DNA of 64,000 nt from the NCBI GenBank assembly GCA_016194865.1, contig JACQAT010000001.1, forward strand, positions 154,022 to 218,021. Reading direction: 5' to 3'. Under the pieces are notes generated by a model. The model did no database searches. It was not told the DNA's origin and saw only the letters and a program-made list of their open reading frames with translations. Shown in pieces: positions 24,350 to 60,032 of the stretch; positions within the stretch are counted from its first letter, which is position 1; every line of letters starts with the position of its first letter. Made by a program: the position numbers and the translations under genes. This DNA is from Chloroflexota bacterium. GTDB taxonomy: Bacteria > Chloroflexota > Limnocylindria > P2-11E.

Positions 24350-25752
24350 GAGCGAGCACGCTCTTCGCGCTGTTCTGCGGTCTCGGCGCCGCCGTCATCG
24401 CGGCGTCGCTGCCCGCGAGCGACTCCGATCTGTTCTGGCACCTGCAGAGCGGCGATCTGATGATCGACCGCGGGGAGCTCCTGCGCACCGACCCGTTCTC
24501 GTACACGCGCTTCGGGACGCCGTACTCGGTCGGCGCGTGGCTCGCGGAGATCGTCTACGCCGGTGTCTTCCGCGCGCTGTCGTGGACCGGCGTCGACCTG
24601 TTGCGCGGACTGCTCATCGGCATCGCCGTGTTCTTCACGGCGCGTGCGGTGCTGCGCCTGCAGCGGCACCCCGCGTGGGCGTTCCCGCCGCTCGTCCTCG
24701 CGATCCTCGTCAGCAAGCCCGACTGGGGCGACCGCCCGCAGCTGTTCACGCTCGCGCTCTTCCCGATCTTCCTCGACGTGCTGCTGCGGACCCGGCTCAC
24801 GGGGAAAACGCGCCAGCTGTGGGCCCTGCCGTTCCTGGTCCTGCTGTGGGCGAACCTGCACGGTGCGTTCGTCATCGGGATCGCCCTGGTGCTCCTCTTC
24901 GCGGTCGAGGCGATCCACGCGCGGCTCGCGATCCAGCGGCCGCTGGCGCTCGTCTCGCTGCTCTGCGTCGTCGCCGGCCTCGCGACGCCGGCGTTCTGGC
25001 GCGCGTACTACGCGGCCGGGTCGTACGCGACGGGCCCGAGCCGTGGTGGCGTCCTCGAGGAGCAGCCGGCCGACGTGCTGAGCGGCGGTGGCGCCGCGTT
25101 CGCGATCCTGCTCGCGCTGGCGCTCGTCCTCGCGCTGCTGCCGAAGCGGCGGGACGCCGCGGTCGCGCTCGACGCACCGCTGCTGTGGTCGCTCCTCATC
25201 GTGCCGTTCACGCTGCTCGGTCTCGCGATCCAGCGGCAGCTGCCATTCGCCGCGTTCATCCTCGCGCCGTACGTCGCGGCCCACCTCCCTGCCGCGTTCG
25301 GCCGCCCGATCGCGCGCGTGCCCCGTCTGCCGCGCAAAGCGGCGCTGCCGATCGCGCTCGTCGCCGTCAGCGCGGCCGTCGCCGCGATGTTCGCGGTCGC
25401 GCCGAGGCAGGCGGATCTCAGCGCGTATCCCGTCGCCGCGGAGCCGATCCTCCGGCGCGAGGCGGGCAACGTCCTCGCCGAATACGACTGGGGCGGCTGG
25501 CTCATCCGCTACGCCCCGAGCGTGCCCACCTTCGTCGACGGACGCGGCGCGACGCTGTTCGCGCCGGACGTGCTCGCTGACTGGGACGACGCCGTGGCGC
25601 TGCGTCCGCCATATCGCGAGATCCTCGACGGCTACGACGTTCGCATCGTGCTCCTGCGGCCGACCCGCCCGCTGGCCATCGCGCTGCGCGAGAGCGGCTG
25701 GAAAGTGCTCGGAGAGGCGCGGGACGCCTGGGTCCTGCTCGAACGCCCGTGA
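24346..25752 (+). CDS. polytopic membrane protein, paralog A (SDLFWHL family; GT-C-like by topology)
   Basis: Trimmed from track ORF 23461..25752 to ATG 24346 (ATGA overlap). Motifs SDSDLFWHLQSG, WANLHGAF, EYDWGGWLIRYAP..TFVDGR. Confidence 0.6.
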   Translation: MRASTLFALFCGLGAAVIAASLPASDSDLFWHLQSGDLMIDRGELLRTDPFSYTRFGTPYSVGAWLAEIVYAGVFRALSWTGVDLLRGLLIGIAVFFTARAVLRLQRHPAWAFPPLVLAILVSKPDWGDRPQLFTLALFPIFLDVLLRTRLTGKTRQLWALPFLVLLWANLHGAFVIGIALVLLFAVEAIHARLAIQRPLALVSLLCVVAGLATPAFWRAYYAAGSYATGPSRGGVLEEQPADVLSGGGAAFAILLALALVLALLPKRRDAAVALDAPLLWSLLIVPFTLLGLAIQRQLPFAAFILAPYVAAHLPAAFGRPIARVPRLPRKAALPIALVAVSAAVAAMFAVAPRQADLSAYPVAAEPILRREAGNVLAEYDWGGWLIRYAPSVPTFVDGRGATLFAPDVLADWDDAVALRPPYREILDGYDVRIVLLRPTRPLAIALRESGWKVLGEARDAWVLLERP

Positions 25753-27134
25753 TGCCGTGGGCCATCGCGCTCCTGACAGGCTCGCTCTTCGCCTTCGCGT
25801 CATCGCGCATGGCCGCACGCGACAGCGATCTGTTCTGGCACCTGGCCACCGGCCGCTTGCTGTTCTCGCGCGGCATCGTCGGCATCGACCAATTCAGCTG
25901 GACCATCGCGAACGCGCCTGTCGCCACCGACCAATGGCTTGGTCAGGCGCTGTGGTACGGCGCGTATCTCGTCGACGGCTGGAGCGGGATCGTCGTGCTG
26001 CGCTCGCTCGCCGTGTTCGCGCTCGTCGCGCTCGTCGTGCACGAGGCCATCGTCCGGCGGCCGGCGCATCCGATCGTCGGTCTCCTCGCCTCGCTCCCCG
26101 CGATCCTGATCGGCCGCTTCATCTGGATCGAGCGGCCGGAGCTGTTCGGCTTCGTGTGCTTCGCCGCGCTGCTGCCGCTGCTGCGCCGCGCGCGCGAGGG
26201 CAGCGGTCGCGCGGCCATCGTGATCATCCCGCTGCTGATCGTGTGGGCGAACGTGCACGGCTCGTTCGCGCTCGGCGTCGGGCTGACGCTGCTCGTGGCG
26301 ATCGAGGGCGCGCTGCGCGACCGAGCGCGCCTGCGGGCATACATCGCGATCGCGATCGGTGCGCTCGTTGCCTGCGTGGCAACACCGGCCGGCCTGTTGA
26401 CGCTCGCGACCCCCGGGTTCCACCTGCTCCATCCGCCGCGCGAGATCCAGGAGTGGGCCGTGCCCGACCCGGCCTCCGCGCCCGGCATCTTCTGGGCGAT
26501 CGCGCTCGCCTTGACGCTCGCGACCGCCATCACAGCAAGAGCGCCGCGTGTCACCGACGCGCTGGTGCTCGTGCCGGTCGCGTTGCTGTCGCTGACCGCG
26601 GCGCGCCACATGCCGCTCCTCGCGATCGCGTGCGCGCCGTATCTCGCGGATCGCGCGCCCGACGCGCTCGCGCTGCTGTTGCGGAGGCCGCCCGTCGCGA
26701 GCCCAAGGCACGCGCGGCGCACACCACCATTCGTAGGGGCGATCGGCATCGCGATCGCTGCCGTGATCCTCGGTGTGAGCGCGGTCACAGCACCGCGCGA
26801 GCCCGACCTGGGCGGCTTCCCGACCGGCGCGCTGGCCGCGCTGCCGCGCGGCGCCGGTCTCTTGAACAATTACGACTGGGGCGGTTGGCTCATTTGGTAC
26901 GCCCCTGATACGCCCGTGTTCATCGACGGAAGGCTCGTCCCGTACATCGATTCGGTGCTGCCGGACTACCGCGCGGTGCTCGGATTGCATCAGGACTGGC
27001 GTGACGTCATCGCGCGCAGACGCGTGCGCGCATTGCTCGTGAGGCCGCGCGACGCGGTCGTGGTCCGCGCGCGCGAGCTGGGGTGGCGCGTGCGCGCGGA
27101 GGGCCCGGAGTTCGTGCTCATCGAGGTGCCGTGA
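25749..27134 (+). CDS. polytopic membrane protein, paralog B (SDLFWHL family; GT-C-like by topology)
   Basis: GTGA overlap with paralog A. Colinear motifs RDSDLFWHLATG, WANVHGSF, NYDWGGWLIWYAP..VFIDGR. Confidence 0.6.
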   Translation: MMPWAIALLTGSLFAFASSRMAARDSDLFWHLATGRLLFSRGIVGIDQFSWTIANAPVATDQWLGQALWYGAYLVDGWSGIVVLRSLAVFALVALVVHEAIVRRPAHPIVGLLASLPAILIGRFIWIERPELFGFVCFAALLPLLRRAREGSGRAAIVIIPLLIVWANVHGSFALGVGLTLLVAIEGALRDRARLRAYIAIAIGALVACVATPAGLLTLATPGFHLLHPPREIQEWAVPDPASAPGIFWAIALALTLATAITARAPRVTDALVLVPVALLSLTAARHMPLLAIACAPYLADRAPDALALLLRRPPVASPRHARRTPPFVGAIGIAIAAVILGVSAVTAPREPDLGGFPTGALAALPRGAGLLNNYDWGGWLIWYAPDTPVFIDGRLVPYIDSVLPDYRAVLGLHQDWRDVIARRRVRALLVRPRDAVVVRARELGWRVRAEGPEFVLIEVP

Positions 27135-39452: not shown

Positions 39453-39493
39453 TTGTCATGGACATTGACAACGATATTGATAGGTCTTATAAC
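39453..39493 (+). promoter_or_regulatory. hspR promoter (TTGACA-17-TATAAC) overlapped by a 6-N7-6 inverted repeat (HAIR-like operator)
   Basis: TTGTCA tggacat TGACAA at 39453-39471. The -35 TTGACA is at 39465-39470 and the -10 TATAAC at 39488-39493. This is an AT-rich island in a ~70% GC background. Confidence 0.6.
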
Positions 39494-39499
39494 AACGCC

Positions 39500-39829
39500 A
39501 TGGCACGCGGAAACCGGCCCGTCTATGTCATCTCCATCGCGGCGAGCCTCGCTGGCTGCCACCCGCGGACCCTTCGCATCTACGAGGAGGAAGGTCTCGT
39601 CGATCCGGTCCGGACCGAGACGAATATCCGCCTCTACAGCGACGAGGACCTGCAGCGCGTCCGGGCCATCCGCTACCTGACGCAGGTCCGGGGCGTGAAT
39701 CTGGCGGGGGTGAAGCTCCTCCTCCAGCTCACCGGCTTGGACGAGCTGCTCGGGGAGCTGGAAGCGGTGGACGAGGGAGACGACCAAGACCACGCGGGCC
39801 ATCACGCAAGGAACGCCGCGAGGTTCTGA
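39500..39829 (+). CDS. hspR: MerR-family heat-shock repressor HspR
   Basis: VYVISIAASLAGCHPRTLRIYEEEGLVDPVRTETNIRLYSDEDLQRVRAIRYL. ATG 39500 is preferred over 39458, which lies inside the operator. The ATG is 7 nt after the -10, which suggests a leaderless transcript. Confidence 0.8.
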   Translation: MARGNRPVYVISIAASLAGCHPRTLRIYEEEGLVDPVRTETNIRLYSDEDLQRVRAIRYLTQVRGVNLAGVKLLLQLTGLDELLGELEAVDEGDDQDHAGHHARNAARF

Positions 39830-39895
39830 GCCGCCGACCAGCAAGGCTCTGCCTGCCTTCACTCAGCAGCAACAATTCAAGGAGAGATCAACAGC

Positions 39896-42307
39896 ATGAC
39901 CGACGAAACCACGACCACCACCGGCGGACCGCGGACCTATCCCGCGCTGATCCCGCTCGTCCCGCTCCGCGAGGCCGTCGTGTTCCCGAAGCTGGTCGTG
40001 CCGCTCGGCGTCGGTCGCGAGAAGAGCGTGGCCGCGATCAACGCCGCCATGCTCGAGGAGAAGCACTTCGTCGTTCTCGCCGCCCAGAAGGACGCCGAGG
40101 TCGACGATGTGTCAGCCGAGCAGATCTACGGCATCGGCACCGTGGCCGAGATCGTGCGCCTGCTGCGGATCCCCGACGGCAGCGCGCAGATCATCGTCCA
40201 GGGCCTGGACCGCGTGCGGATCACGGGGTACGACCCCGAGTCCCGCTTCTTCAAGGTGAGCGTCGAGCCCCTGAGCGACGTCGACGGCGACGCGGTCGAG
40301 GCCGAGGCGCTGCTTCGCGGCGCGAAGTCGCTGTTCTCGTCCTACGTCGACAACGGCGGATCGATCCTGCCCGAGATCGCGATGACGGCGAAGAACACCG
40401 ACGACACGTCGCACTTCGCGGACCTCGTGGCCTCGAGCCCCGACCTGACGCTCGAGCAGCGCCAGCAGCTCCTCGAGACGCGCAGCGTCGTGGAGCGGCT
40501 GCGGATCATCTCCGTCTTCCTCGCGAAGCAGAACGAGATCCTCGAGCTGAAGCAGAAGATCCAGAGCGAGGTCCAGCAGACGCTCGACAAGACGCAGCGC
40601 GAGTACATCCTGCGCGAGCAGATGAAGGCCATCCAGCGCGAGCTGGGTGACGACGACGGGACGTCCGAGGTCGGCGAGCTTCGCGAGAAGATCGAGGCCG
40701 CGGGCATGCCCGACGAGGTCAAGGAGAAGGCCCTCAAGGAGGTCGGCCGGCTGGAGAAGATCCCGCAGGCCTCACCGGAGCAGGGCGTCATCCGCGCCTA
40801 CGTCGACTGGATGATCTCCCTTCCCTGGAAGAAGGCCGTCGACGACGACTGGGACATCGCAGCGGCCGCGCGCATCCTCGACGAGGACCACTACGGCCTG
40901 CCGAAGGTGAAGGACCGCATCCTCGAGTACATGGCGGTGCGCAAGCTCGCCAAGGACCTGCGCGCTCCGATCCTCTGCTTCGTCGGCCCGCCCGGTGTGG
41001 GCAAGACGAGCCTCGGCAAGTCGATCGCCCGCGCGATGGGTCGCAAGTTCGTGCGCATGTCGCTCGGCGGCATCCGCGACGAGGCGGAGATCCGCGGTCA
41101 CCGCCGCACCTACGTCGGTGCGCTGCCGGGCCGCGTGCTCCAGAACATGAAGACCGCCGGCGAGATCAACCCCGTGTTCATGCTCGACGAGATCGACAAG
41201 GTCGGCGCGGACTTCCGCGGCGACCCGAGCTCGGCCCTGCTCGAGGTCCTCGACCCGGAGCAGAACAACACGTTCTCCGACCACTACCTCGAGGTGCCGT
41301 ACGACCTCTCCAAGGTCATCTTCATCACGACGGCGAACATCGAGGACACGATCATCGCGCCGCTCCGCGACCGCATGGAGATCATCCGTCTCCCTGGGTA
41401 CACGGAGGACGAGAAGATGCATATCGCCGAGGGGTACCTGCTGCCACGGCAGCTGAAGCAGCACGGGCTCTCGCCCGAGACCTGCCTCATCCCGCAGGAG
41501 ACGCTGCTCCAGCTCATCCGCGAGTACACGCGCGAGGCCGGCGTTCGGAACCTCGAGCGTGAGATCGGCTCGATCTGCCGCAAGGTCGCTCGTGCCGTCG
41601 CGGAGGGCAAGGCCCAGAGCGTGTGCGTCACGGGCAAGGAGCTCGCGACATACCTCGGCCCGCAGAAGTTCGACTACGGCCTGGCCGAGGAGGAGGACCA
41701 GATCGGCGCCGTCACCGGCGTCTCGGTCTCCGAGGCGGGCGGCGACGTCCTCACGGTCGAGGCGACCGTGATCGACGGCAAGGATCAGGACTTCCTGCTC
41801 ACCGGCCAGCTCGGGAAGGTCATGGAGGAGTCGGCACGCGCGGCGCTCTCCTACGTGCGAGCGCACCACGCGGAGCTCGGCGTCCCGAAGGGCTTCTTCG
41901 AGGACCACGCGATGCACATCCACGTCCCCGCGGGAGCGATCCCCAAGGACGGCCCGTCCGCCGGCGTCACGATGGCGACGGCCATCACCTCGGCGCTCAC
42001 CGGACGTCGTGTCCGGCGCGACGTGGCGATGACGGGTGAGATCACGCTCCGTGGCCGGGTGCTGCCGATCGGCGGTCTGAAGGAGAAGCTCCTCGCGGCC
42101 CACCGTGCCGGCATCAAGACGTTCGTGTTCCCTGAGAAGAACAGGCGCGATCTCGTCGACGTGCCGAAGGAGATCCTCGACAGCGTGGAGACGATCCCGG
42201 TGTCGGAGATCGACGAGGTCTTCAAGATCGCGTTGCTGCTGGGGCCGAACGTGACCCCGGCACAGATCGAGGCGGCACGTCCATCGGTGGCACCGCCGGC
42301 GCACTAG
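39896..42307 (+). CDS. lon: ATP-dependent Lon protease
   Basis: Walker [10 protein letters not shown] and catalytic [22 protein letters not shown] upstream. Confidence 0.97.
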
Positions 42308-42323
42308 CCCCCGGAGGCCGCAC

Positions 42324-43319
42324 ATGCCGGTCGAATACAAGGACTACTACAAGACACTGGGCGTGAAGAAGGACGCCTCCGCGGATGAGATCCGCAAGGC
42401 GTATCGAAAGCTCGCCCGGCAATTCCATCCAGACGTGAACAAGGGCACCGACGCGACGAAGCGCTTCCGCGAGGTCAACGAGGCCAACGAGGTCCTCTCC
42501 GATCCCGACAAGCGCAAGCGCTACGACACGCTCGGCCCCGACTTCGAGCGCTACGCGAACGCGGGGCCGGGCGCGCATCCCGGCGGCTTCGGCCGCGCGG
42601 GCAACGGTGGCTTCCAGTACGTGTACACGGGCCCGGCGGGGAGCGATCCGTTCGGCGGCGACGCCGGCGGGTTCTCCGACTTCTTTCGCACCGTCTTCGG
42701 CGACATGGCCGCGGGCGGTGTCGGCGGACAGACGTTCACGCGGCGCACGCGCTCGCGGGCGCAGCCGGGTGTCGACGCGGCATACGAGGTCGAGGTCTCC
42801 CTCCAGGAGGCCTATCGCGGAAGCGAGCGGACCATCCAGCTCCAGCGCGAGGACGGCACGACGCGCACGCTCCAGGTGAAGATCCCCGCGGGCGTGCAGG
42901 ACGGACAACGGATCCGTCTGGCGGGCCAGGGCGGGGCAGCGAGCGGGGGCGGCCCCGCAGGTGACCTCTATCTGAAGATCCGCGTGAAGCCGCATCCGTT
43001 CTTCACGCGCGAGGGAGACGACCTCCGGGCGGAGCTCCCGGTCGCGCTCCACGAGGCGCTCCTGGGGGCCGAGGCCGGGGTGCCGACGCTCAAGGGAAAG
43101 GTCTCGCTGCGGATCCCGCCGGAGACGCAGAACGGGCGCACGATCCGCCTCGCAGGGCAGGGCATGCCACGCGCGAAGGAGCGCGGGGGCGGCTTCGGGG
43201 ATCTCTACGTGACCGTCAAGGTCGTGCTGCCGCAGAAGCTCAGCGAGAGGGAACGCGAGCTCATCCAGGGACTCGCCACATCACGCGCGAACGAAGACCC
43301 AAGGGGGCATCTGCTGTGA
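42324..43319 (+). CDS. J-domain co-chaperone (DnaJ class II / CbpA-like, no zinc-finger region)
   Basis: DYYKTLGV ... [14 protein letters not shown], a G/F-rich segment and C-terminal substrate-binding domains. No CxxCxGxG repeats. Confidence 0.85.
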
Positions 43320-45949
43320 TCGATCCGAACAAGCTCACTGAAAAGTCGCAAGAGGCGCTCGTCCTCGCGCAGAAGCGCGCCTCCGACGAGGGCCGTTCGC
43401 AGATCGACGTCGAGGATCTCGCCGTCTCGCTGCTCGAGCAGCCCGGCGGCATCGTGCCGAGCGTCCTCGAGGCGCTCGGGGTCAACAGCAATCAGCTCCT
43501 CGCCGCGCTCAAGTCGGAGCTCGCGCACCAGCCGAAGGTCTCGGGCAACGTCCAGATCCAGGCGTCCGCGCGGCTCGGCCGCGTGCTCCAGCAGGCCTCG
43601 CGCGAGGCGGAGCAGCTCAGGGACGAGTTCGTCTCCGTCGAGCACCTCCTGCTCGCGATGACCAACGACAACGGCTACACGGGCCAGGCCCTGCAGCGGG
43701 CCGGCGTCACGCACGAGCGGGCGCTGGGCGCGCTGCGCGACGTGCGCGGCAACCAGAAGGTCACCGACCAGAACCCCGAGGCGAAATACCAGGTGTTGGA
43801 GAAGTACGGCCGCGACCTGACCGAGCTGGCGCGCAGGAACAAGATCGACCCCGTCATCGGCCGGGACGAGGAGATCCGGCGCGTCATCCAGGTCCTCTCA
43901 CGACGCACGAAGAACAACCCCGTCCTCATCGGCGAGCCCGGCGTGGGTAAGACCGCGATCGTCGAGGGCCTCGCGCAACGGATCGTCCGTGGCGACGTTC
44001 CAGAAGGGCTTTCTAATAAGCGCGTCTTCGCGCTCGACCTGGGATCGCTGCTCGCCGGCGCGAAGTACCGCGGCGAGTTCGAGGAGCGGCTCAAGGCCGT
44101 GCTGAAGGAGATCACCGCGAGCGAGGGCCAGATCATCCTGTTCATCGACGAGCTGCACACCGTCGTGGGCGCCGGCGCGGCGGAGGGCGCGGTCGACGCC
44201 GCGAACCTCCTGAAGCCGATGCTCGCGCGCGGTGAGCTGCACGCGATCGGCGCGACCACGCTCGACGAGTACCGCAAGCACATCGAGAAGGACGCGGCCC
44301 TCGAGCGGCGCTTCCAGCCCGTCACGGTCGGCGAGCCGAGCGTCGATGACACGATCTCGATCCTCCGCGGGCTGCGCGAGCGCTATGAGATCCACCACGG
44401 CGTGCGCATCAACGACTCCGCGCTCGTCGCGGCGGCGGTGCTCTCGGAGCGCTACATCAACGACCGCTTCCTGCCCGACAAGGCCATCGACCTCGTCGAC
44501 GAGGCGGCCTCGAAGCTCCGCATGGAGATCGACTCGATGCCCGCGGAGCTCGACGAGGTGGATCGTCGCATGCGCCAGCTCGAGATCGAGCGCGAGGCGC
44601 TGAAGCGTGAGACCGACAGCGCGTCGAAAGAGCGCCTGGAGAAGCTCGAGAAGGAGCTGTCCGACCTCAAGGAGAGCTCGCGCGAGCTCCGCGCCCATTG
44701 GGAGCAGGAGAAGGCCGCGCTCGCGGAGATCCGCGAGAAGCGGCAGCGGCTCGAGGACATCCGCGCGGAGATCGAGAAGGCCGAGCGCTCCGCCGATTAC
44801 GCGAAGGCCGCGGAGCTGAAATACGGCACCCTCGCGCAGCTCGAGAAGGAGGTGCGCGAGGGCGAGGAGCGCCTCGCGCGTCTCCAGCAGAGCCAGAAGA
44901 TGCTGACCGAGGAGGTCACGCCCGAGGACATCGCGGAGGTGGTCGCGAAGTGGACCGGGGTCCCGGTCACGCGGCTGCTCGAGGGCGAGGTCGCGAAGCT
45001 CCTGCGGATGGAGGAGCGGCTCCACGAGCGCGTCGTCGGCCAGGACGAGGCCGTGCGCGCGGTCGCGAACGCGGTGCGCCGCGCCCGTGCCGGCATGCAG
45101 GACCCGAACCGCCCGCTGGGCTCGTTCATCTTCCTGGGGCCGACCGGTGTCGGGAAGACGCTGCTCGCGAAGGCCCTTGCGGAGTTCCTGTTCGACGACG
45201 AGAAGGCCATGGTGCGCATCGACATGTCCGAGTACATGGAGAAGCACACCGTCGCGCGCCTCATCGGCGCGCCGCCCGGATACGTCGGCTACGACGAGGG
45301 CGGCCAGCTGACGGAGGCGGTCCGCCGCCGGCCGTACACGGTGCTGCTGCTCGACGAGATCGAGAAGGCGCATAGCGACGTCTTCAACGTGCTGCTGCAG
45401 GTCCTCGACGATGGCCGCCTCACCGACGGTCAGGGCCGCACGGTCGATTTCAAGAACGTCGTGATCATCATGACCAGCAACGTCGGCTCGACCTTCATCA
45501 GCGAGATGCACGGCGACGAAGAGAAGATGCGCAAGATGGTCATGGACGCCCTGCGCGGGGCATTCCGGCCCGAGTTCCTCAACCGGGTCGACGAGATCGT
45601 GATCTTCCACCCGCTTCGCGAGAAGCAGGTCATGGAGATCGTCGAGAAGGAGGCCGCCATCCTCACCAAGCGGCTGGCCGATCGGAAGATCTTCCTCGAG
45701 CTCACGCCGAACGCGAAGGCGCTGCTCGCCAAGGAGGGCTTTGACCCGGTCTACGGGGCGCGCCCGATCCGGCGGACGATCCAGAAGCTCGTCCTCGACC
45801 CGCTCGCCCAGAAGATCCTGGAGGGCGAGTACAAGGAAGGCGAGACGGTCTACGTCGACGCCGAGGACGGCGAGATCCAGTTCTGGACCGAGGAGTTCGC
45901 CAAGGTCAACCCCAAGAAGACCCGGGTCACGGGGGCGCGGGCCAACTAG
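43316..45949 (+). CDS. clpB: ATP-dependent disaggregase ClpB
   Basis: Two AAA+ modules ([18 protein letters not shown]) separated by the long coiled-coil M-domain. GTGA overlap with the upstream gene. Confidence 0.97.
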
Positions 45950-45950
45950 G

Positions 45951-47066
45951 GTGCGGCTGCTGCTCGTCGCGTGCGTGGTGCTCTCGGCGTGCGGCGGCGG
46001 TGGCTCTGTACCGGCCACCGCTCCGCTCGCTTCTGCCCCCGCTCCACTCCCTGTCGTCCCTTCGCCGTCCAGCGCGCCATCACCGTCGGCGTCCGCGTCT
46101 CCTTCGCCTGCGTTGGGGTCGCCTTGCTCGCGCGATCCGGAGTGCAACGCGGTGCTGAGCGCGCTCACGTTCATCGATCCGAACAGGATGAACGATCACC
46201 TGAACGTGCTGACCGGCTTCGTCTCCCGTGACCCGCGACACCCCGGTCACGCGAAGGCGGTCGCGTACATCAAGGAGCAGCTCGGGGCGCTCGCGTACTA
46301 CGGCTGGAACATCGAGTCGCAGAAGACGAGCTACCAGGGCATCCCGCTCGAGAACGTCTTCGCGAGCATCGAAGGGTCGACCGCGGCGTCCAGCGGCTCG
46401 GCGACCCCGCGTCTCCCGCCATCCACGACCTCGGTGATCGTCTCGGCGCACTACGACTCCGTCGCCAACCGGACCCCCGGTTGGCGGCCGGCCCTCGACC
46501 CGGCGCCAGGCGCCGACGACAACGGGACCGGCACCGCCGCGCTCCTCGAGTTCGCGCGGGTCATCTCGATCACGACCCGCGAGCAGCTCCGCAGCCGCAT
46601 CGTCCTCGCGTTCTTCGACGGTGAGGAGCTGTTCTTCAAGGGCAGCGGCGCGTACGTGGCGACGCTGACGAAGCCCTACCGCTACAAGGCGGCGCTGAAC
46701 CTCGACATGGTGGGCTTCAACCCGATCGCCGACCGGCTCGACCTGCTCTGGTACACGAACACCTCGGCCGGCCTGCGCGACCGCGTGCTGGCGGCGAACG
46801 ACCGCTACGGCATCGGCGTCGCCCCGCTCAACGCCCAATTTGCGGCGGACGGGAACACGATCATGGATGCCGCGCCGTTCGGCCTCGCGGGGATCCCATC
46901 GATCGCGATCTGCCAGCGCTACGGCGAGAACGACGCCACCTTCCCCGGCAACTACACGTTCCACACCGTCGGCGACACGCCCGACAAGATCACCAACAAG
47001 CGTCTCTGGCTGAAGGCGGCGAAGCTGACGCTCGCGACGGCGCTGGAGCTCGCCCGCGCGAATTGA
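45951..47066 (+). CDS. M28-family aminopeptidase lipoprotein
   Basis: Trimmed to GTG 45951. VRLLLVACVVLSACGGG lipobox. SAHYDS, GADDNGTGTAALLE, FFDGEE, LNLDMVG. Confidence 0.8.
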   Translation: MRLLLVACVVLSACGGGGSVPATAPLASAPAPLPVVPSPSSAPSPSASASPSPALGSPCSRDPECNAVLSALTFIDPNRMNDHLNVLTGFVSRDPRHPGHAKAVAYIKEQLGALAYYGWNIESQKTSYQGIPLENVFASIEGSTAASSGSATPRLPPSTTSVIVSAHYDSVANRTPGWRPALDPAPGADDNGTGTAALLEFARVISITTREQLRSRIVLAFFDGEELFFKGSGAYVATLTKPYRYKAALNLDMVGFNPIADRLDLLWYTNTSAGLRDRVLAANDRYGIGVAPLNAQFAADGNTIMDAAPFGLAGIPSIAICQRYGENDATFPGNYTFHTVGDTPDKITNKRLWLKAAKLTLATALELARAN

Positions 47067-47093
47067 CGTGCTCGACGGAGTGGGCGCCGCCGC

Positions 47094-47558
47094 TCAGGCG
47101 CGACCTGCGCCGAGCTCCGCCTCCGGCCAGCCGTCCGTCGTCGCGACGATCGTCACCGGTCCATCGGCGTCGATGACCACGCGCATGAGCGCTCCGAACC
47201 GACCGTTCTCGACGCGCAGGCCCGTTCCGCGCAGGACGCCGCAGAACGCGTCGAAGAGCCGCCGGCCCGTCTCCGGATCCGCGGCGGCCGTGAAGTCGGG
47301 CCTTCGGCCACGGCGGATGTCACCGAAGAGCGTGAACTGCGGTACCGCGAGGATCGCGCCCCCGATGTCCGCGACGGTGTGGTGCAGATGGCCGCGTTCG
47401 TCGTCGAACACGCGCAGCGAGCCGATCTTGCCCGCGAGCTTCTCGCCATCGAGCGCCGTGTCCGTTCGCGCCACGCCGACGAGGACCACGAGCCCGCGCT
47501 CGATCGCGGCGATCCGCTCGTCCCCGACCGTGACCGTTGCCGCCCGCACGCGCTGCAC
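47094..47558 (-). CDS. dtd: D-aminoacyl-tRNA deacylase
   Basis: VQRVRAATVTV ... GLVVLVGV ... PQFTLFGD ... RPDF. Confidence 0.9.
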   Translation of the reverse strand: MQRVRAATVTVGDERIAAIERGLVVLVGVARTDTALDGEKLAGKIGSLRVFDDERGHLHHTVADIGGAILAVPQFTLFGDIRRGRRPDFTAAADPETGRRLFDAFCGVLRGTGLRVENGRFGALMRVVIDADGPVTIVATTDGWPEAELGAGRA

Positions 47559-47573
47559 GACGGCGCGCGTCTG

Positions 47574-47783
47574 CTAGCTCTCCAGCATCCAGGGGTTGTC
47601 GCCGCGCACCACGTCCTCGACCTCCCGTGGGCCGAGGTGGCCGGGCGCCCAGACGGTCATGCTCTTGGAGAGCGGCAGGCGGGTGATGTAGGTGACCTTG
47701 CCGAACCGGTAGCCGTGCTGGAACAGGAACGGCTTGCCGTCGATCTCGAGGAGCTGACGGCGGTCGGTCGATGTGGCGGGCAT
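47574..47783 (-). CDS. hypothetical 69-aa protein
   Basis: G/C-rich third positions. Lies between the peptide ORF and dtd on the same strand. I recognise no family. Confidence 0.5.
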   Translation of the reverse strand: MPATSTDRRQLLEIDGKPFLFQHGYRFGKVTYITRLPLSKSMTVWAPGHLGPREVEDVVRGDNPWMLES

Positions 47784-47819
47784 CGCGGTCAGTATGGGGA
47801 TGCCAGGCCGCGGGCGTCG

Positions 47820-47987
47820 CTACGGCTGGCCCGGGTCTCCACCACCGTCATCGGGGTCGCTATCGACGAGCTCGACGCCCGCCCGCTCCGGTCCTGCCTG
47901 GGAATCCGCCCGCGCGTGCGTCGGGAGCACGAGCGCGAGCAGGAGCGCGGTCAAGAACAGCGTGACCAGCCGGGAACGCAGTTTCAT
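47820..47987 (-). CDS. 55-aa secreted pro-peptide candidate (signal peptide + acidic tail ending DGGGDPGQP)
   Basis: MKLRSRLVTLFLTALLLALVLPTHARA|DSQAGPERAGVELVDSDPDDGGGDPGQP. It is the C-terminal tail of track ORF 47820..48989. GAGGGG lies upstream of the ATG. G/C-rich third positions. Divergent from the HTH-TPR regulator. Confidence 0.55.
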   Translation of the reverse strand: MKLRSRLVTLFLTALLLALVLPTHARADSQAGPERAGVELVDSDPDDGGGDPGQP

Positions 47988-48068
47988 GTCGGCCCCACCC
48001 CTCGTCCGCGACGCGACCCGGTACGTATGCTTGACGGACTCTACCGACGACGCTCGTTTCGGGTCAAT

Positions 48069-48096
48069 GGTCCTTTCGGTCGTCAGACAAAGGACC
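48069..48096. promoter_or_regulatory. inverted repeat GGTCCTTT-N12-AAAGGACC upstream of HTH-TPR regulator 1
   Basis: Perfect 8-bp arms at 48069-48076 and 48089-48096, in the 126-bp divergent intergenic region and 18 nt upstream of the regulator start. Confidence 0.4.
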
Positions 48097-48113
48097 GCAG
48101 CGCTGGGAGGCAC

Positions 48114-49421
48114 GTGCCGAGCATTACGAAGGCCCCCGACAAGCCAACGCTCCTCGGCGAGCGCGTCCGGATCGCACGCCACGCGCTCGGACTGTCCCAG
48201 TCGCAGCTTGCCGGGGCGGAGCTGACGAAGGGGTTCATCAGCCAGATCGAGTCCGGCCTGGTGCGCCCGTCGGTCCGATCGCTGCAGATCATCGCGAACC
48301 GCCTTGGCAAGCCGTTCGACTACTTCATCGGCGACGACCCGGCGGTCAGCAGGAAGCGCCTCGCCTTCCACCGCCTGGCCGCCGAAGCCGCCATGACCCG
48401 CCAGGACTGGCCCGCGCTGCGCAGCGAGATCGAGGCCGCGCTCCGGGAGTCGCCGGACAAGCGCGAGCGCTGCCGGCTCGTCGGCATGCTCTCGGCGGCC
48501 GATCTCGGTGAGGGCGATCGCGAGATGACGTTCACGCGGATCGCCGAAGCGCTTTCGGGTCTGGACCTCGATGCGGACGCCGCGGATATCGCGCAGCTGC
48601 TGTACCGAAAGGGCCGCGCCTACGCGCAGCTCGAGCAGCTCGTCGCCGCCACCGACGCGTACGAGGCCTCGCGCGCGATGGTCGAGAAGTACGAGATCAA
48701 CGACACGCGGCTGCGTTCGCGTCTGCTGGTCGCGCTCGGGACGATGTACCGCCGCCTCAACCGGACCGCGAAGGCCATGGCCACCTATGAGGCGGCGCTC
48801 GCGCAGGCGTCGCGCGCCTCCGAGCAGGAGATGGCGGCCCGTAGCTACATGGGCGTCGCCGCCACGCTCTACGACGCGGGCGAGTACGACTCCGCGATCT
48901 CGAACTACCGTCGCGCGCTCGCGCTCTGGCAGCACCTCGCCGACTCCGACTTCGAGCTGAACGCCATGCAGTCGCTCGCCGGGGTGCACTTCGAGCAGGG
49001 CGATCTCGTCGCGGCGCGGGAGATGGCCACCCGCTGCCTCTCGCGAGCGGAGAGCCTGGGTGACCGCCGCTGGGCTGCCGTGGCGCGCGTCGAGCTAGCA
49101 CGAGGCGAGCTGGCCGCCGGTCACATCCAGGAGGCGCTGTCACTGGCCGACCCAGCGGAACGGGTCCTCGCTGAGCTGGATGATCCCCAGCAGCAGGCGA
49201 GCGCGCTGCGCATCCTCGGCGCCGCGCACGAAGCTGCCGGCGACCATGGCGCCGCCGACCGCGCGTATCTCGCCTCCATCGAGCTGCTCACCGGCATCGA
49301 CCACTTCGCGTCACGGAGCGTCACGTCCGCGGAGTACGCGCAGCATCTTCGCGCACGGGGCGAGATCGACAAGGCTTTCTCGATGCTGGAGCTCGCGCGG
49401 GGTGCCGCCGCCCGCCACTAG
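48114..49421 (+). CDS. Cro/C1 (XRE)-type HTH + TPR-domain transcriptional regulator, copy 1
   Basis: Trimmed from track ORF 47379..49421 to GTG 48114 (GGGAGG RBS). HTH: LGERVRIARHALGLSQSQLAG...FISQIESGLVRPSVRSLQIIANRLGKP. About 350 aa of TPR-like repeats follow. Confidence 0.8.
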   Translation: MPSITKAPDKPTLLGERVRIARHALGLSQSQLAGAELTKGFISQIESGLVRPSVRSLQIIANRLGKPFDYFIGDDPAVSRKRLAFHRLAAEAAMTRQDWPALRSEIEAALRESPDKRERCRLVGMLSAADLGEGDREMTFTRIAEALSGLDLDADAADIAQLLYRKGRAYAQLEQLVAATDAYEASRAMVEKYEINDTRLRSRLLVALGTMYRRLNRTAKAMATYEAALAQASRASEQEMAARSYMGVAATLYDAGEYDSAISNYRRALALWQHLADSDFELNAMQSLAGVHFEQGDLVAAREMATRCLSRAESLGDRRWAAVARVELARGELAAGHIQEALSLADPAERVLAELDDPQQQASALRILGAAHEAAGDHGAADRAYLASIELLTGIDHFASRSVTSAEYAQHLRARGEIDKAFSMLELARGAAARH

Positions 49422-49438
49422 TCACTAGCATTCCGGAC

Positions 49439-51193
49439 GTGCCCCGCACTCCCCTGAGCTACGACAACGCAGGCATCGCGAGCGTGCTTGATGAGATCGG
49501 CGATCTCCTGGAGCTCAAGGGCGAGAACGTGTTCCGCGCCGTCACGTACCGCGCGGCAGCGAGAGCGATCCGCGATCTGCGCAGTCCGCTCAAGGACTAC
49601 ATGGAGGCGGGCACGCTCGAGTCGATCCCAAAGGTGGGGAAGAGCGTCAAAGATGTCATCGAGCAGCTCCTGACCACCGGGACGGCCACGCGGCACGAGG
49701 AGCTGCGCGCGGCGGTCCCGGATGGCCTGCTGACGCTGCTGCGCGTGCCCGGCGTCGGTCCTTCGACCGCCCGGACGATCTACGACCACCTCAAGATCAC
49801 GACCATCGACGAGCTCGAGGAGGCCGCGAAGAGCGGTCGGCTGCGCCAGCTCCCGAAGATCCAGGCGAAGACCGAAGAGAACATCCTCAAGTCCATCGCC
49901 TCGTTCCGATCACGGACCGGGCGTTCTCTCATCGTGGATGCACAAGCCGCCGCGAACGCGATTCTGGAGTGGCTCCAGAACGAGGCGACCTTCGACCGGA
50001 TCACCGTCGCGGGGAGCCTGCGCCGCTGGCGGGAGACCATCGGCGACATCGACGTGCTGGTCGCGTCCGCCGACGCGGCGCCGATCATGGCGGCGTTCAC
50101 GCGCGCCCCAACGGTCGAGCGCGTGCTCGCGAACGGGGAGACGAAGTCCTCCGTCGTCATCGACCGCGGCCTGCAGATCGATCTCCGGGTGGTGCCGCTC
50201 GCGTCGTGGGGTGCCGCGCAGATGTACTTCACGGGCTCGAAGGAGCACAACGTGCGGCTGCGCGGCATCGCGCTCCGCAAGAAGCTTCTGCTCAACGAGT
50301 ACGGCCTGTACCGCGTCGGCGAGGAGAAGACCGGCACGCCTGTGGCGTCACGGACGGAGGAGGAGATCTACGCGGTGCTCGGCATGGAGTGGATCCCGCC
50401 GGAGCTGCGCGAGGACCACGGCGAGATCGACGCGGCCGTCGCGCACAAGCTGCCGGCGCTCGTCGAGGTCGCGGACATCACCGGCGACCTGCACACGCAT
50501 TCGAACTGGACCGACGGACGCGATCCGATCATCGACATGGCCCGCCGCGCGCGCGACAAGGGCTACGCCTACATGGCGCTGACCGACCACTCCGTGGGTC
50601 TTGGCATGACGCAGGGCCTGAACGTCGAGCGGATCGCGGCGCGCAGCGCGGAGATCGCGAAGGTGAATCGCGAGCTGGCGCCGTTCCGTGTCCTCATCGG
50701 CACCGAGGTCGACATCCGCGCGAACGGCAATCTCGACTATCCCGACGAGTTGCTGGCGCAGTTCGACATCGTGACGGCGTCCGTGCACTCCGCGTTCTCC
50801 CAGCCGCGCGCGCAGATGACGCGGCGGATCATCGGAGCGATGGAGCATCCGCTCGTCGACGCGATCTCGCACCCCACAGGGCGCCTACTTGAAAAACGAG
50901 ATCCGTACGACGTCGACATGACGGCGTTGATCGACGCGGCGGTGCGCACGCGCACGCGGCTCGAGGTCAACGGCGGCCCGGAGCGCCTCGACCTCCCGGA
51001 CATCTGCGTGCACGAGGCGCTCGAGAAGGGCGCCGAGCTCGTCATCAGCTCCGACGCGCACCGGGTCGAGGAGCTCGAATGGATGGCGCTCGGCGTCGCG
51101 ACCGCGCGCCGCGGCTGGACGACGAAGAAGAGCGTCGCGAACACGCGATCGCTCGACGAGATCATGGGCTCCCGCAAGCGCGCTGAGAGGTGA
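49439..51193 (+). CDS. polX: family X DNA polymerase with C-terminal PHP domain (PolX)
   Basis: HhH motifs (GVGPSTARTIY), catalytic GSLRRWRETIGDIDVLV, and PHP motifs DLHTHSNWTDG and SSDAH. Confidence 0.9.
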   Translation: MPRTPLSYDNAGIASVLDEIGDLLELKGENVFRAVTYRAAARAIRDLRSPLKDYMEAGTLESIPKVGKSVKDVIEQLLTTGTATRHEELRAAVPDGLLTLLRVPGVGPSTARTIYDHLKITTIDELEEAAKSGRLRQLPKIQAKTEENILKSIASFRSRTGRSLIVDAQAAANAILEWLQNEATFDRITVAGSLRRWRETIGDIDVLVASADAAPIMAAFTRAPTVERVLANGETKSSVVIDRGLQIDLRVVPLASWGAAQMYFTGSKEHNVRLRGIALRKKLLLNEYGLYRVGEEKTGTPVASRTEEEIYAVLGMEWIPPELREDHGEIDAAVAHKLPALVEVADITGDLHTHSNWTDGRDPIIDMARRARDKGYAYMALTDHSVGLGMTQGLNVERIAARSAEIAKVNRELAPFRVLIGTEVDIRANGNLDYPDELLAQFDIVTASVHSAFSQPRAQMTRRIIGAMEHPLVDAISHPTGRLLEKRDPYDVDMTALIDAAVRTRTRLEVNGGPERLDLPDICVHEALEKGAELVISSDAHRVEELEWMALGVATARRGWTTKKSVANTRSLDEIMGSRKRAER

Positions 51194-58572: not shown

Positions 58573-59922
58573 GTGCCTCAGCAGACGCGCACCAGGCGGC
58601 CCATTCCCGACTCCACGACCGTCAAAGAGCTCGGTGCGCGCATCCGCAGGGCGCGCACAGAGGCAGGGCTGAGCCAGGGCGCGCTCGCGGCCCCCAACTT
58701 CACGCGCGCCTATGTGAGTGCGATCGAGCTGGGGAAGATCCGGCCCTCCATGAAGGCGCTCGAGTACCTCGCGAACCGACTGGGGAAGCCGACATCGTTC
58801 TTCCTGTCGGACGAGGCCGAGGAGTCAGAGCGGAAGCAGCGGGAATTCGCGATCGCTGAGCTTTCCAGTCGTTTGACGCGCGCACGCGCGGCGGAGGCTC
58901 TCTCGAGTGCTGAAGAGCTGCTTGCGGCGGCCAAGTCCCATCGCGAGATAGCGACCCTGAGGATGTACCGAGCGACCGCGCTGAACTTCCTCCAGAGGGG
59001 CCGTGAAGCGCTGCCTGATCTCGAAGCGTCCGAGCGTCTTGCGAAGCAATTGGGTGACGAGCGACTTTCCGCGCAAGTGAACTATCAGCGAGCCATCGGA
59101 TACCGACTCGTCGGCGATCCACTCAGGGCCAAGCACCTACTCGAGGAGCATCTAGCGAAGGTGGAAGCTGCACCGGTGATCGACGCCCTCATGCGAATGA
59201 AGCTCTTGAAGGATCTCGGCGCTATCGCGTACGACCTTGGACAGCACGAAGCCGCGAGTGCTTATTACTTTTCGGCGCTCGAATGGTCGAAGGACGTGAG
59301 CGATATGGCCGCCCTAGCGACGATCTATCAGGGCTTGGCGCTGTCCTATCGAGCTCGCGGTGATCTGGATGCCGCAACCACGTATCTCCAAAGAGCAATC
59401 GGAGCGAGTGAGGCCGCCAACGATCTGACGCAGATAGCCATGCTCTACAACGCCATGGCGTTGTTTGCCGCGGAGCGTGGGCACCTGCAATCGGCGCGTA
59501 CGTACTCAGACAAAGCGATCGAGCTCGCACGCGTCACTGGTCCAGCGGCCTTCGTGCCCCACTACGTGACTACGAAGGCCGAGTGCGCCGCGAAGGCCGG
59601 GATGTGGCAAGACGCTGCGGGGTTTGCGGCGCAGGCGCTCGCTCTGGCGACGGAACACCAGAACGTGCGCGCTGCCGCCGCTGCCCGATTGGTCCTGTCT
59701 GACGCTGCGAGCCATCTCGGCCAAGTCGACGAAGGCGTTCGCCATCTAAAGGAGGCTGCGACGGCCTATGAGGAATTGAATGCGTTTGCTGAGCTCGGGG
59801 AAGTGTTCCAGCGTCTAAGCCGACTGGCTGAGACACGCGGCCAGTCTGACGAAGCCCGCCATTACCTCATCAAGGCGTACGAAGCAACGCGAAAGCCCAG
59901 TGGGCTCATGGAAAGGAAATGA
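58573..59922 (+). CDS. Cro/C1 (XRE)-type HTH + TPR-domain transcriptional regulator, copy 2
   Basis: HTH: LGARIRRARTEAGLSQGALAA...YVSAIELGKIRPSMKALEYLANRLGKP, colinear with copy 1. TPR-like repeats run to the C-terminus. Confidence 0.8.
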   Translation: MPQQTRTRRPIPDSTTVKELGARIRRARTEAGLSQGALAAPNFTRAYVSAIELGKIRPSMKALEYLANRLGKPTSFFLSDEAEESERKQREFAIAELSSRLTRARAAEALSSAEELLAAAKSHREIATLRMYRATALNFLQRGREALPDLEASERLAKQLGDERLSAQVNYQRAIGYRLVGDPLRAKHLLEEHLAKVEAAPVIDALMRMKLLKDLGAIAYDLGQHEAASAYYFSALEWSKDVSDMAALATIYQGLALSYRARGDLDAATTYLQRAIGASEAANDLTQIAMLYNAMALFAAERGHLQSARTYSDKAIELARVTGPAAFVPHYVTTKAECAAKAGMWQDAAGFAAQALALATEHQNVRAAAAARLVLSDAASHLGQVDEGVRHLKEAATAYEELNAFAELGEVFQRLSRLAETRGQSDEARHYLIKAYEATRKPSGLMERK

Positions 59923-60032
59923 TGCGGTACCTCATGCTCGTCCTCGCCCTCATCGTCGCGCTACAAGTCGCCACGCCTACCCTCGTCACAGAGGTTGACT
60001 CGTGGGGAGGGGACCCGCCAACGGCCGGCTAG
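59919..60032 (+). CDS. 37-aa secreted pro-peptide candidate (not in the supplied ORF track)
   Basis: ATGATG spans the regulator TGA (59920-59922). Reads MMRYLMLVLALIVALQVA|TPTLVTEVDSWGGDPPTAG, with TAG at 60030-60032. AAGGA lies upstream. The tail shares VDS.. and GGDP with the 47820..47987 peptide. Confidence 0.5.
   Translation: MMRYLMLVLALIVALQVATPTLVTEVDSWGGDPPTAG

Follow-up and report, generated by a model that had tools for sequence, protein, structure and literature searches.

RRNPP signalling systems have been given an operational signature of five parts: a propeptide of 10-100 aa, its export by Sec (signal peptidase I, SPI), a receptor of 250-500 aa, matches of this receptor to hidden Markov models of tetratricopeptide repeats (TPRs), and genes that are direct neighbours (-60 to 400 bp) (Bernard et al. 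2023, PMC10075063). Surveys and reviews treat RRNPP/RRNPPA as a trait of Bacillota, their plasmids and their phages (PMC10075063, PMC9765709, PMC12700828), and the literature that we searched contained no report of such systems outside Bacillota and none tying RRNPP to Chloroflexota/Limnocylindria. According to a structural phylogeny of the family, an outgroup drawn from remote structural homologues is needed to root it and to settle its ancestral state (PMC12700828). In the present work, we analyzed a 64-kb stretch of DNA (69% GC; hereafter, the window) from a soil Chloroflexota bacterium of the Limnocylindria, in which reg1, the gene of a regulator with a helix-turn-helix (HTH) domain and TPRs, diverges from pep1, a 55-codon open reading frame (ORF). 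We propose with moderate confidence, on the strength of comparative sequence data, that this module is a chromosomal RRNPP-like signalling system of Limnocylindria (Chloroflexota), made of a secreted peptide and a cytoplasmic receptor. The elements of the pair are as follows.

48114..49421, plus strand: reg1, GTG start, product of 435 aa (Reg1).
48153..48329, plus strand: XRE-type HTH of Reg1, residues 14-72, from Pfam and the structural model.
48339..49400, plus strand: TPR region of Reg1, residues 76-429, 18 helices forming nine TPR-like repeats in the model.
47820..47987, minus strand: pep1, ATG at 47987, stop codon at 47820-47822, product of 55 aa without Pfam match.
47907..47987, minus strand: predicted signal peptide of Pep1, residues 1-27, with MKLRSR, a hydrophobic core and HARA/D.
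47823..47906, minus strand: pro-region of Pep1, residues 28-55, acidic and Pro/Gly-rich.
47823..47867, minus strand: probable mature-peptide region VDSDPDDGGGDPGQP, the C-terminal 15 residues, containing the D-P-G core; its boundaries are predicted.

The initial annotation of this DNA had placed a 435-aa reg1 at GTG 48114, separated by 126 bp from a divergent 55-aa ORF, and both frames were recovered at these coordinates, with a gap running from 47988 to 48113. The product of pep1 is MKLRSRLVTLFLTALLLALVLPTHARADSQAGPERAGVELVDSDPDDGGGDPGQP. A protein identical to Reg1 is also present in a Chloroflexi metagenome-assembled genome (MAG). A GGGAGG block lies 3-4 nt upstream of the reg1 GTG (48105-48116), a short spacing for a Shine-Dalgarno sequence; the N-termini of orthologues back this start region, and the exact start codon is not certain.

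To find relatives of the pair, a profile of the regulator was scanned against one genome per species (GTDB representatives), which yielded 46 full-length orthologous loci. All of these are in MAGs of Limnocylindria/Chloroflexota, except two in records labelled Candidatus Acidiferrales and Candidatus Bathyarchaeia. Wherever the contig reaches, the gene order is dtd (minus), orf69 (minus), gap, reg (plus), polX (plus); a gene for an M28 peptidase lies upstream in most loci, clpB where the flank extends to it, and acyP downstream. A small minus-strand ORF was found between orf69 and the regulator in all 46 loci, complete in 45 (41-92 aa) and cut by the contig end in one. In 15 loci, and in 2 more that lacked the orf69 anchor, it was recognised by inspection of the reading frames, as a filter on start codon and hydrophobicity had not picked it. 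The distance between regulator and peptide gene is 41-179 bp in the orthologues, and the spacing between the peptide gene and orf69 is 2-81 nt in all loci.

The ORFs at this position share one build. K/R residues come after the start codon, then a hydrophobic stretch and an AxA-like site, and a variable linker leads to a unit that is conserved at the C-terminus. Adding the window's own Pep1 to the 45 complete orthologues gave a set of 46 peptides, on which the counts of composition and motif are based. An AxA-like site occurs in every one of them (within residues 16-38), and their codon-position GC contents have the order third (0.81) > first (0.69) > second (0.55), the third exceeding the second in 46/46. 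The gene calls of an independent Logan assembly (SRR12113409) also include the pep1 ORF. A tblastn search with Pep1 of the window and of the orthologous loci (E <= 1e-3) gave no specific match and no orthologue, because these peptides are too short and too divergent; their conservation is therefore shown by position and features rather than by sequence, a pattern expected of a fast-evolving signal precursor. The leader was judged heuristically from its n-, h- and c-region features, and the -3/-1 rule places the putative cleavage site after A27 (between A27 and D28). The Sec-type leader with an AxA site (HARA/D) and the 28-aa acidic tail described in the initial annotation are both present by this heuristic, and the frame that it had expected to recur in relatives did so at every locus. 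Taken together, these data indicate that pep1 is a genuine and conserved gene, encoding a propeptide with a signal peptide, and that the peptide gene is universally paired with the regulator.

What is conserved in the tails is a D-P-[G/W/E] core. The peptides fall into classes ending in FPEDPW(PGL), VPYDPGLP, DPGDPG[LI]PPD, DPGDGGG[FW] and [ED]DGGF, PEDPG[FLI], DDPGY or IDPGF, and the tail encoded in the window is intermediate between the DPGDGGGF and DPGDPGLP classes. Of the 46 peptides, 40 have DP[GWE] among their final 16 aa, compared with 2.8 expected (maximum 9) from shuffled tails. The core unit was repeated in exact tandem, in two to four copies, in 18 of the 46 (0.28 expected). Propeptides that contain several pheromone copies in tandem have been described for RRNPPA systems (PMC11343458).

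Reg1 was matched by the Pfam family HTH_3 (PF01381) over residues 19-71 (E 2.8e-8) and by several TPR families (TPR_12, E 5e-22; TPR_1, 1e-10; TPR_2, 4.5e-9; TPR_14; TPR_8), with the MalT-like TPR family also among the matches; TPR models match all 20 aligned orthologues. Orthologues have 49-62% identity to Reg1; those in the protein search mostly have 427-453 aa, and the listed matches there, at 52-62% identity, came overwhelmingly from Candidatus Limnocylindria/Chloroflexota. A search of IMG/VR found no phage-borne relatives. The AlphaFold2 model computed from the alignment of 20 orthologues (mean predicted local distance difference test score, pLDDT, 90.7) consists of a five-helix HTH domain followed by the 18 helices of nine TPR-like repeats. 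Conservation is highest in the HTH, with most of the invariant alignment columns at residues 14-74.

When this model was compared with the Protein Data Bank (PDB) by Foldseek, the first match was LGN/Pins (E 1e-9), followed by the PlcR:PapR7:DNA complex 3u3w (E 7e-7; query-normalised template-modelling score, TM, 0.40) and by RapJ, RapF, RapI, phi3T Rap and pLS20 Rap at about 1e-6 (to 4e-6; TM 0.55-0.63). Neither NprR nor AimR structures were among the top 50 matches. A profile search of PDB sequences similarly retrieved RapJ (1e-9), RapF (2e-7), RapH (2e-5) and the HTH of PlcR (9e-6), with generic TPR proteins scoring better. The HTH_3 and TPR matches and the fold matches to PlcR and Rap bear out the earlier assignment of Reg1 to HTH-TPR regulators of the peptide-receptor type. 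The model indicates that Reg1 is an HTH domain joined to a TPR superhelix of the peptide-binding type, an RRNPP architecture that comes closest to the NprR-type combination of HTH and nine TPRs.

We next compared protein distances for the TPR domain, the HTH, polX, dtd and orf69 across lineages grouped by peptide motif. Three lineages with differing peptides (FPEDPW, SPDDPEFD and PEDPGFGG) had TPR distances of 0.42-0.49, while their distances elsewhere were 0.15-0.17 for polX, 0.19-0.24 for dtd, 0.13-0.22 for orf69 and 0.12-0.15 for the HTH. Among genomes sharing VPYDPGLP, the distances were 0.10-0.13 for polX and 0.05-0.07 for the TPR domain; two individual pairs of these gave 0.11 for dtd, 0.04 for orf69 and 0.02-0.03 for the HTH. 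The ratio of sensor-domain to housekeeping divergence differs about six-fold between the lineages with changed motifs and the VPYDPGLP sharers, a comparison that rests on three independent lineage splits, with phylogenetically non-independent pairs and no formal test. Thirty-two positions of Reg1 were specific to a peptide class, none of them in the HTH. An acceleration that is confined to the ligand-binding half and coincides with a change of the peptide core is the pattern expected of a co-evolving receptor-signal pair. The idea that the peptide is only a product under the control of the regulator, and the idea that the two genes are mere syntenic neighbours, are both disfavoured by this result, since neither predicts an acceleration confined to the TPRs.

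The region between the two genes and the minus-strand genes beyond pep1 contain the following elements.

47993..48003, minus strand: Shine-Dalgarno-like sequence GAGGGGTGGGG, 5 nt upstream of the pep1 ATG.
48038..48067, minus strand: P_pep, a sigma-70-type promoter TTGACC-N18-TAGAGT directed toward pep1, orf69 and dtd.
48002..48031, plus strand: candidate P_reg, TCGTCC (48002-48007)-N18-TATGCT (48026-48031), directed toward reg1; a putative promoter below the threshold of the consensus scan.
48069..48096, no strand: candidate operator GGTCCTTT-N12-AAAGGACC, an 8-bp inverted repeat of putative function.
47574..47783, minus strand: orf69, product of 69 aa, 36 nt 3' of pep1.
47094..47558, minus strand: dtd, D-aminoacyl-tRNA deacylase (Pfam Tyr_Deacylase, E 9e-46), the last gene of the minus-strand string.

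P_pep was the sole promoter-like site found by a consensus scan of 47000-49600, where 0.2 were expected. Both of its hexamer blocks (GGTCAA and AGTCTA/GATTAT on the plus strand) are conserved in the orthologues, as is, in the aligned intergenic regions, a purine-rich GGGGAG block directly 5' of the peptide ATG. The same alignment contains conserved plus-strand TTGTCC-N17-TAT(C/T)GT blocks, which correspond to the candidate P_reg. The repeat GGTCCTTT-N12-AAAGGACC, the best inverted repeat of the intergenic region, is located just upstream of the P_pep -35 element and inside the reg1 leader. It aligns with a conserved box, (C)TGTCAGTTCGGT(C/G)AC(A), between the P_pep -35 element and the ribosome-binding site of reg1, and in the VPYDPGLP clade this box is palindromic (TGTCA-N6-TGACA). 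Given that conservation in Reg1 peaks at the HTH, a shared operator is plausible. We infer that the conserved box is a candidate Reg1 site, whose position would allow both activation of P_pep and autoregulation of reg1. An Rfam scan of 47500-48250 detected no RNA family.

The order of the minus-strand string, pep1 then orf69 then dtd, is as it had been described. No terminator was found between the three genes; because of this, and of the short pep1-orf69 spacer in all loci, they probably form one transcript. The homologues of orf69 at orthologous loci have 68-69 aa and 56-87% identity (mostly 73-87%). Conservation of this protein exceeds that of the neighbouring regulator and of dtd, and its gene is always immediately 3' of the propeptide gene. 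A search retrieved 225 homologues, of which those with a named source were hypothetical proteins of Limnocylindria/Chloroflexota. The protein had no Pfam or NCBIfam match, none of the 225 homologues had a Pfam domain, and its AlphaFold2 model (pLDDT 71, four strands and a helix) matched no fold in the PDB. Thus, orf69 encodes a conserved, lineage-specific protein and is probably co-transcribed with pep1.

A second HTH-TPR regulator with a small ORF beside it is encoded about 9 kb further on.

58573..59922, plus strand: reg2 (copy 2), HTH-TPR regulator of 449 aa.
59919..60032, plus strand: pep2, product of 37 aa (MMRYLMLVLALIVALQVATPTLVTEVDSWGGDPPTAG) with a hydrophobic leader and the tail EVDSWGGDPPTAG; its ATG overlaps the reg2 TGA as ATGA.

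The products of reg1 and reg2 are paralogues, as shown by 30% identity over 332 colinear aa (BLASTP, E 1e-22), in keeping with the colinearity claimed for them in the initial annotation. That annotation had gone on to align the two peptide tails on a shared VDS[DW]...GGDP block and to propose duplication of a whole receptor/peptide module. Formal alignment retained only D...GGDP, and in its stated form the block is conserved in neither peptide family. With a best local score of 30 (p = 0.023 against shuffles; 0.0066 against 915 ORF tails of the window), the similarity of the two tails proved marginal, at p about 0.02 in the shuffling test, and the VDS block was lost. Descent of the two peptide genes from one ancestor is unproven. 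In the copy-2 family, the core reads [WFY]-G-G-x-P-P, with C-C as the usual terminus; the tails of the nearest orthologues finish with ..WGGQPP[VI]WG, and those of many more with ..D[WFYLI]xGxPPxCC. The arrangement of the genes differs as well, pep1 being divergent and upstream of its regulator and pep2 co-directional and overlapping the reg2 stop. Duplication of the receptor is established; co-duplication of the peptide is left unproven because the cores of the two families differ, the tail similarity is marginal and the arrangements differ. What did hold for both paralogues is that each has its own adjacent small ORF with a hydrophobic leader, conserved in relatives.

The reg2 orthologues keep a conserved glpX-reg2-folD synteny. 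Of 72, about 18 have a detectable pep2-like ORF on their 3' side, and two have what seem to be remnants. In most of the more distant orthologues, no peptide ORF was detected downstream; upstream, the glpX-reg2 gap of distant orthologues holds no Pep2-like ORF. The two remnants (L111 and L114, about 3860-3891) are apparently truncated, reading ..MKGGSPPGCC without a hydrophobic leader. These observations suggest that the reg2 lineage has lost the peptide repeatedly and contains orphan receptors, unlike copy 1, where the peptide gene is present in 46/46. Most relatives of Pep2 carry a C-terminal Cys-Cys (D[WFYLI]xGxPPxCC); Pep2 of the window has a Cys-free ending, WGG[DQ]PPxxG, as have its two closest relatives. 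Such a pair of Cys residues suggests a disulfide, a lipid or other chemistry atypical of RRNPP pheromones. Very distant reg2 orthologues (L162, about 2843-2923; L163; L164), with 33-35% identity and the same glpX-reg-folD synteny, are followed directly 3' by an ORF of 26-28 aa with a strong Shine-Dalgarno box, ending in AAR.FAD[LI]xPGxVG; we read the FAD[LI]xPGxVG ORF as a third peptide type for this receptor lineage. A candidate third group of paralogues (P0232, P0239) was rejected, as its members proved to be distant reg2 orthologues in the same glpX-folD synteny.

If the copy-1 module is indeed a signalling system, P_pep would transcribe pep1, probably with orf69 and dtd, to give a pre-propeptide of 55 aa. 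The Sec pathway would export this product, signal peptidase presumably cutting it after HARA (A27/D28), and extracellular proteases may then trim the acidic pro-region of 28 aa to a short peptide around the D-P-G core. At high density, this peptide would be re-imported and bind in the groove of the nine-repeat TPR domain of Reg1. Binding might alter the engagement of the HTH with the conserved box in the 126-bp region, and the expected outcome would be activation of the peptide operon, autoregulation of reg1 or both, the direction of control and the regulon being conjectural.

Several observations weigh against this interpretation. In the structural comparison, LGN/Pins and designed TPRs outrank the RRNPP receptors; the best matches are generic TPR proteins, and the repeats of Reg1 are themselves canonical TPRs. 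The Pfam family RNPP_C matched Reg1 at E 0.09 only (12.7 bits, compared with a cut-off of 26.5) and was not consistent among orthologues. Homology to RRNPP receptors is unproven because this match is below the cut-off and generic TPR proteins match better. The covariation of peptide and receptor that had been anticipated is seen for copy 1 in the TPR divergence, which tracks the peptide motif; at the level of residues, the class-specific positions are scattered over TPR helices and loops and not visibly clustered. A uniform palindromic operator was considered and rejected, as the intergenic regions have only a conserved box with clade-specific inverted repeats. Neither an oligopeptide permease (Opp) nor another peptide transporter is encoded in the 64-kb window. 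The module is part of a conserved housekeeping block (clpB-M28-dtd...polX), unlike many RRNPP systems, which are mobile and patchy, and adjacency alone could reflect old synteny.

We considered the possibility that Pep1 is an exported product with an extracellular role of its own (antimicrobial, adhesion, metal-binding or envelope), and that Reg1 senses another cue through its TPRs. A divergent promoter architecture suits a regulator and its target equally well, and re-import of Pep1 is conjectural. TPR-HTH proteins can bind non-peptide ligands, the MalT-like TPR family is among the Pfam matches of Reg1, and ComR is reported to be able to respond to non-peptide metabolites (PMC12998947). Yet, this explanation does not account for a TPR domain that alone exceeds the HTH and the flanking genes 3-fold in its rate of divergence where the peptide changes and is near-frozen where the peptide is constant; furthermore, a Sec leader followed by short tandem units at the C-terminus is typical for a pheromone precursor (PMC11343458). 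We regard it as unlikely, though it is the alternative that fares best.

Much less probable, in our estimation, is a modified peptide of the ribosomally synthesized and post-translationally modified (RiPP) type, whose Asp/Pro/Gly-rich tail would be modified, possibly with the orf69 product as partner, before it acts as signal or effector. The constant position of orf69 immediately downstream (2-81 nt), its conservation above that of the regulator and its lack of a known fold or family are compatible with such a partner, and the conserved Cys-Cys end of the copy-2 peptides hints at chemistry beyond plain proteolysis. However, no recognisable modification enzyme adjoins pep1, and a protein of 69 aa is too small for most tailoring enzymes. 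The orf69 product also stays highly conserved while the peptide core switches class, unlike a substrate-specific partner, and Pep1 begins with a signal peptide of the Sec type, not with a RiPP leader.

We give equally little credence to the view that pep1 and reg1 are functionally unrelated neighbours sharing an old gene order. Synteny across the class extends over the entire block clpB-M28-dtd-orf69-pep-reg-polX-acyP, so that little can be read from adjacency alone. The co-diversification, being specific to the TPR domain, counts against this view, as do the compact divergent control region that the two genes share, with its conserved elements, and the presence of an adjacent leader-bearing mini-ORF beside the paralogous reg2 too. 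Finally, that the 55-codon frame is a chance ORF of GC-rich intergenic DNA (spurious ORFs are abundant at 69% GC, and Pep1 has neither a Pfam match nor a tblastn orthologue) is effectively refuted by the comparative data, namely the positional conservation in 46/46 with signal-peptide features, the codon-position GC signature, the conserved Shine-Dalgarno sequence and promoter, the repeated C-terminal core and the independent gene call.

The rest of the window, in which spurious ORFs are plentiful, is occupied by housekeeping genes (ATP synthase, MreB, Lon, DnaJ, ClpB, PolX, PurH, GlpX, FolD and others). Directly upstream of the M28-dtd-orf69-pep1 block is a heat-shock cluster encoding a MerR-family regulator, Lon, DnaJ and ClpB (39458-45949, plus strand), in which the MerR gene occupies the position of an HspR-like repressor. 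The M28-family peptidase (45741-47066, plus strand), which adjoins dtd and has a syntenic counterpart at most orthologous loci, starts with a lipoprotein-like leader (..LLLVACVVLSACGGGG) followed by a Pro/Ser/Ala-rich linker. An exported M28 aminopeptidase beside the propeptide operon could share in maturation; since the whole block is syntenic, no link between it and pep1 can be drawn. An S9 prolyl-oligopeptidase-family protein with beta-propeller repeats (2017-3849, plus strand) may deserve attention in view of the Pro-rich nature of the putative pheromones. Three large ORFs of 418, 763 and 461 aa (20965-22218, 23461-25749 and 25749-27131, plus strand) have gene-like codon GC but were not matched by Pfam (E <= 1e-8); their neighbours are glycosyltransferase and LPG_synthase_TM genes, and they possibly encode lineage-specific envelope proteins.

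Set against the five-part signature with which we began, the locus agrees in each part: a propeptide of 55 aa (41-92 in the family), Sec features (judged heuristically), a receptor of 435 aa, TPRs and a distance of 126 bp. Reg1 also belongs to the XRE-family HTH proteins by its N-terminal HTH_3 domain (PF01381, E 2.8e-8). Membership of RRNPPA by sequence was not found, there being no significant RNPP_C match, and Rap profile matches (1e-9 to 2e-5) being surpassed by those of generic TPR proteins. Nor does the occurrence in Bacillota apply, as Reg1 and its orthologues come from MAGs of Chloroflexota/Candidatus Limnocylindria. The system thus appears to work like RRNPP, and membership by descent is left unproven.

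Among individual systems, NprR-NprX of the Bacillus cereus group is alike in its receptor of about 420-435 aa with an N-terminal XRE-type HTH and about nine TPRs (see also PMC3763537). Here too, an adjacent small gene encodes a Sec-exported propeptide, of which, in NprX, a short processed fragment is the ligand. Several records of the Joint Genome Institute (JGI) label Reg1 orthologues 'NprR'. The present system differs by belonging to Chloroflexota, not Bacillota, and by a pep1 that is divergent and upstream, whereas NprX is co-directional and downstream. The TPRs of Reg1 are canonical (strong TPR_1/2/12 matches) and those of NprR degenerate, and the D-P-[G/W] core is unrelated to NprX. No NprR structure was present among the top 50 Foldseek matches or the 60 listed PDB sequence matches.

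PlcR-PapR, also of the Bacillus cereus group, resembles the present pair in that PlcR is an HTH-TPR activator that binds the C-terminal fragment of a Sec-exported propeptide and a palindromic promoter box; its complex 3u3w is a structural match (E 7e-7) and its HTH a profile match (E 9e-6). PlcR has 5 TPRs and about 285 aa, in contrast to the 9 repeats and 435 aa of Reg1, the query-normalised TM is 0.40, and the DNA box differs. Rap-Phr systems, including those of phages phi3T and phi105, share the TPR superhelix (RapJ, E 1e-9; RapF, 2e-7; TM 0.55-0.63) and propeptides with Sec leaders, some with tandem pheromone copies (PMC11343458), as in 18/46 here. They also share a fast co-diversification of receptor and peptide into specificity classes. 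Unlike Reg1, whose system is that of a core-genome transcription factor, Rap has no HTH and targets other proteins; the Rap and Phr genes usually overlap in the same orientation, and mobile elements often carry them. Rgg-SHP and PrgX-PrgQ have divergent receptor and peptide genes with one shared control region, as here (see also PMC10075063, figure 1). Their peptides leave by the PptAB exporter, without a Sec signal, and their receptors have 5 TPR-like repeats.

We put at about even the chance that this is an ancient, vertically inherited core-genome pheromone system of Limnocylindria, split into many specificity classes, which would be either a deep sister or outgroup of the Bacillota RRNPPA or an independent invention. 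If so, peptide quorum sensing by cytoplasmic receptors would be no speciality of Bacillota and would operate in an abundant, uncultured lineage of soil and freshwater. A conserved pair of HTH-9TPR receptor and propeptide in another phylum is a concrete candidate for the outgroup that the family needs. Its presence in every sampled species of the class, together with the co-evolution signal, makes the pair a natural experiment in the evolution of specificity, and it offers a first testable handle on cell-cell signalling in this abundant, mostly uncultured soil and freshwater group. The features that set it apart from the known systems are its phylum, its canonical TPRs, its acidic, Pro/Gly-rich D-P-G/W core, and its fixed place within a block of housekeeping genes in every sampled species of the class.

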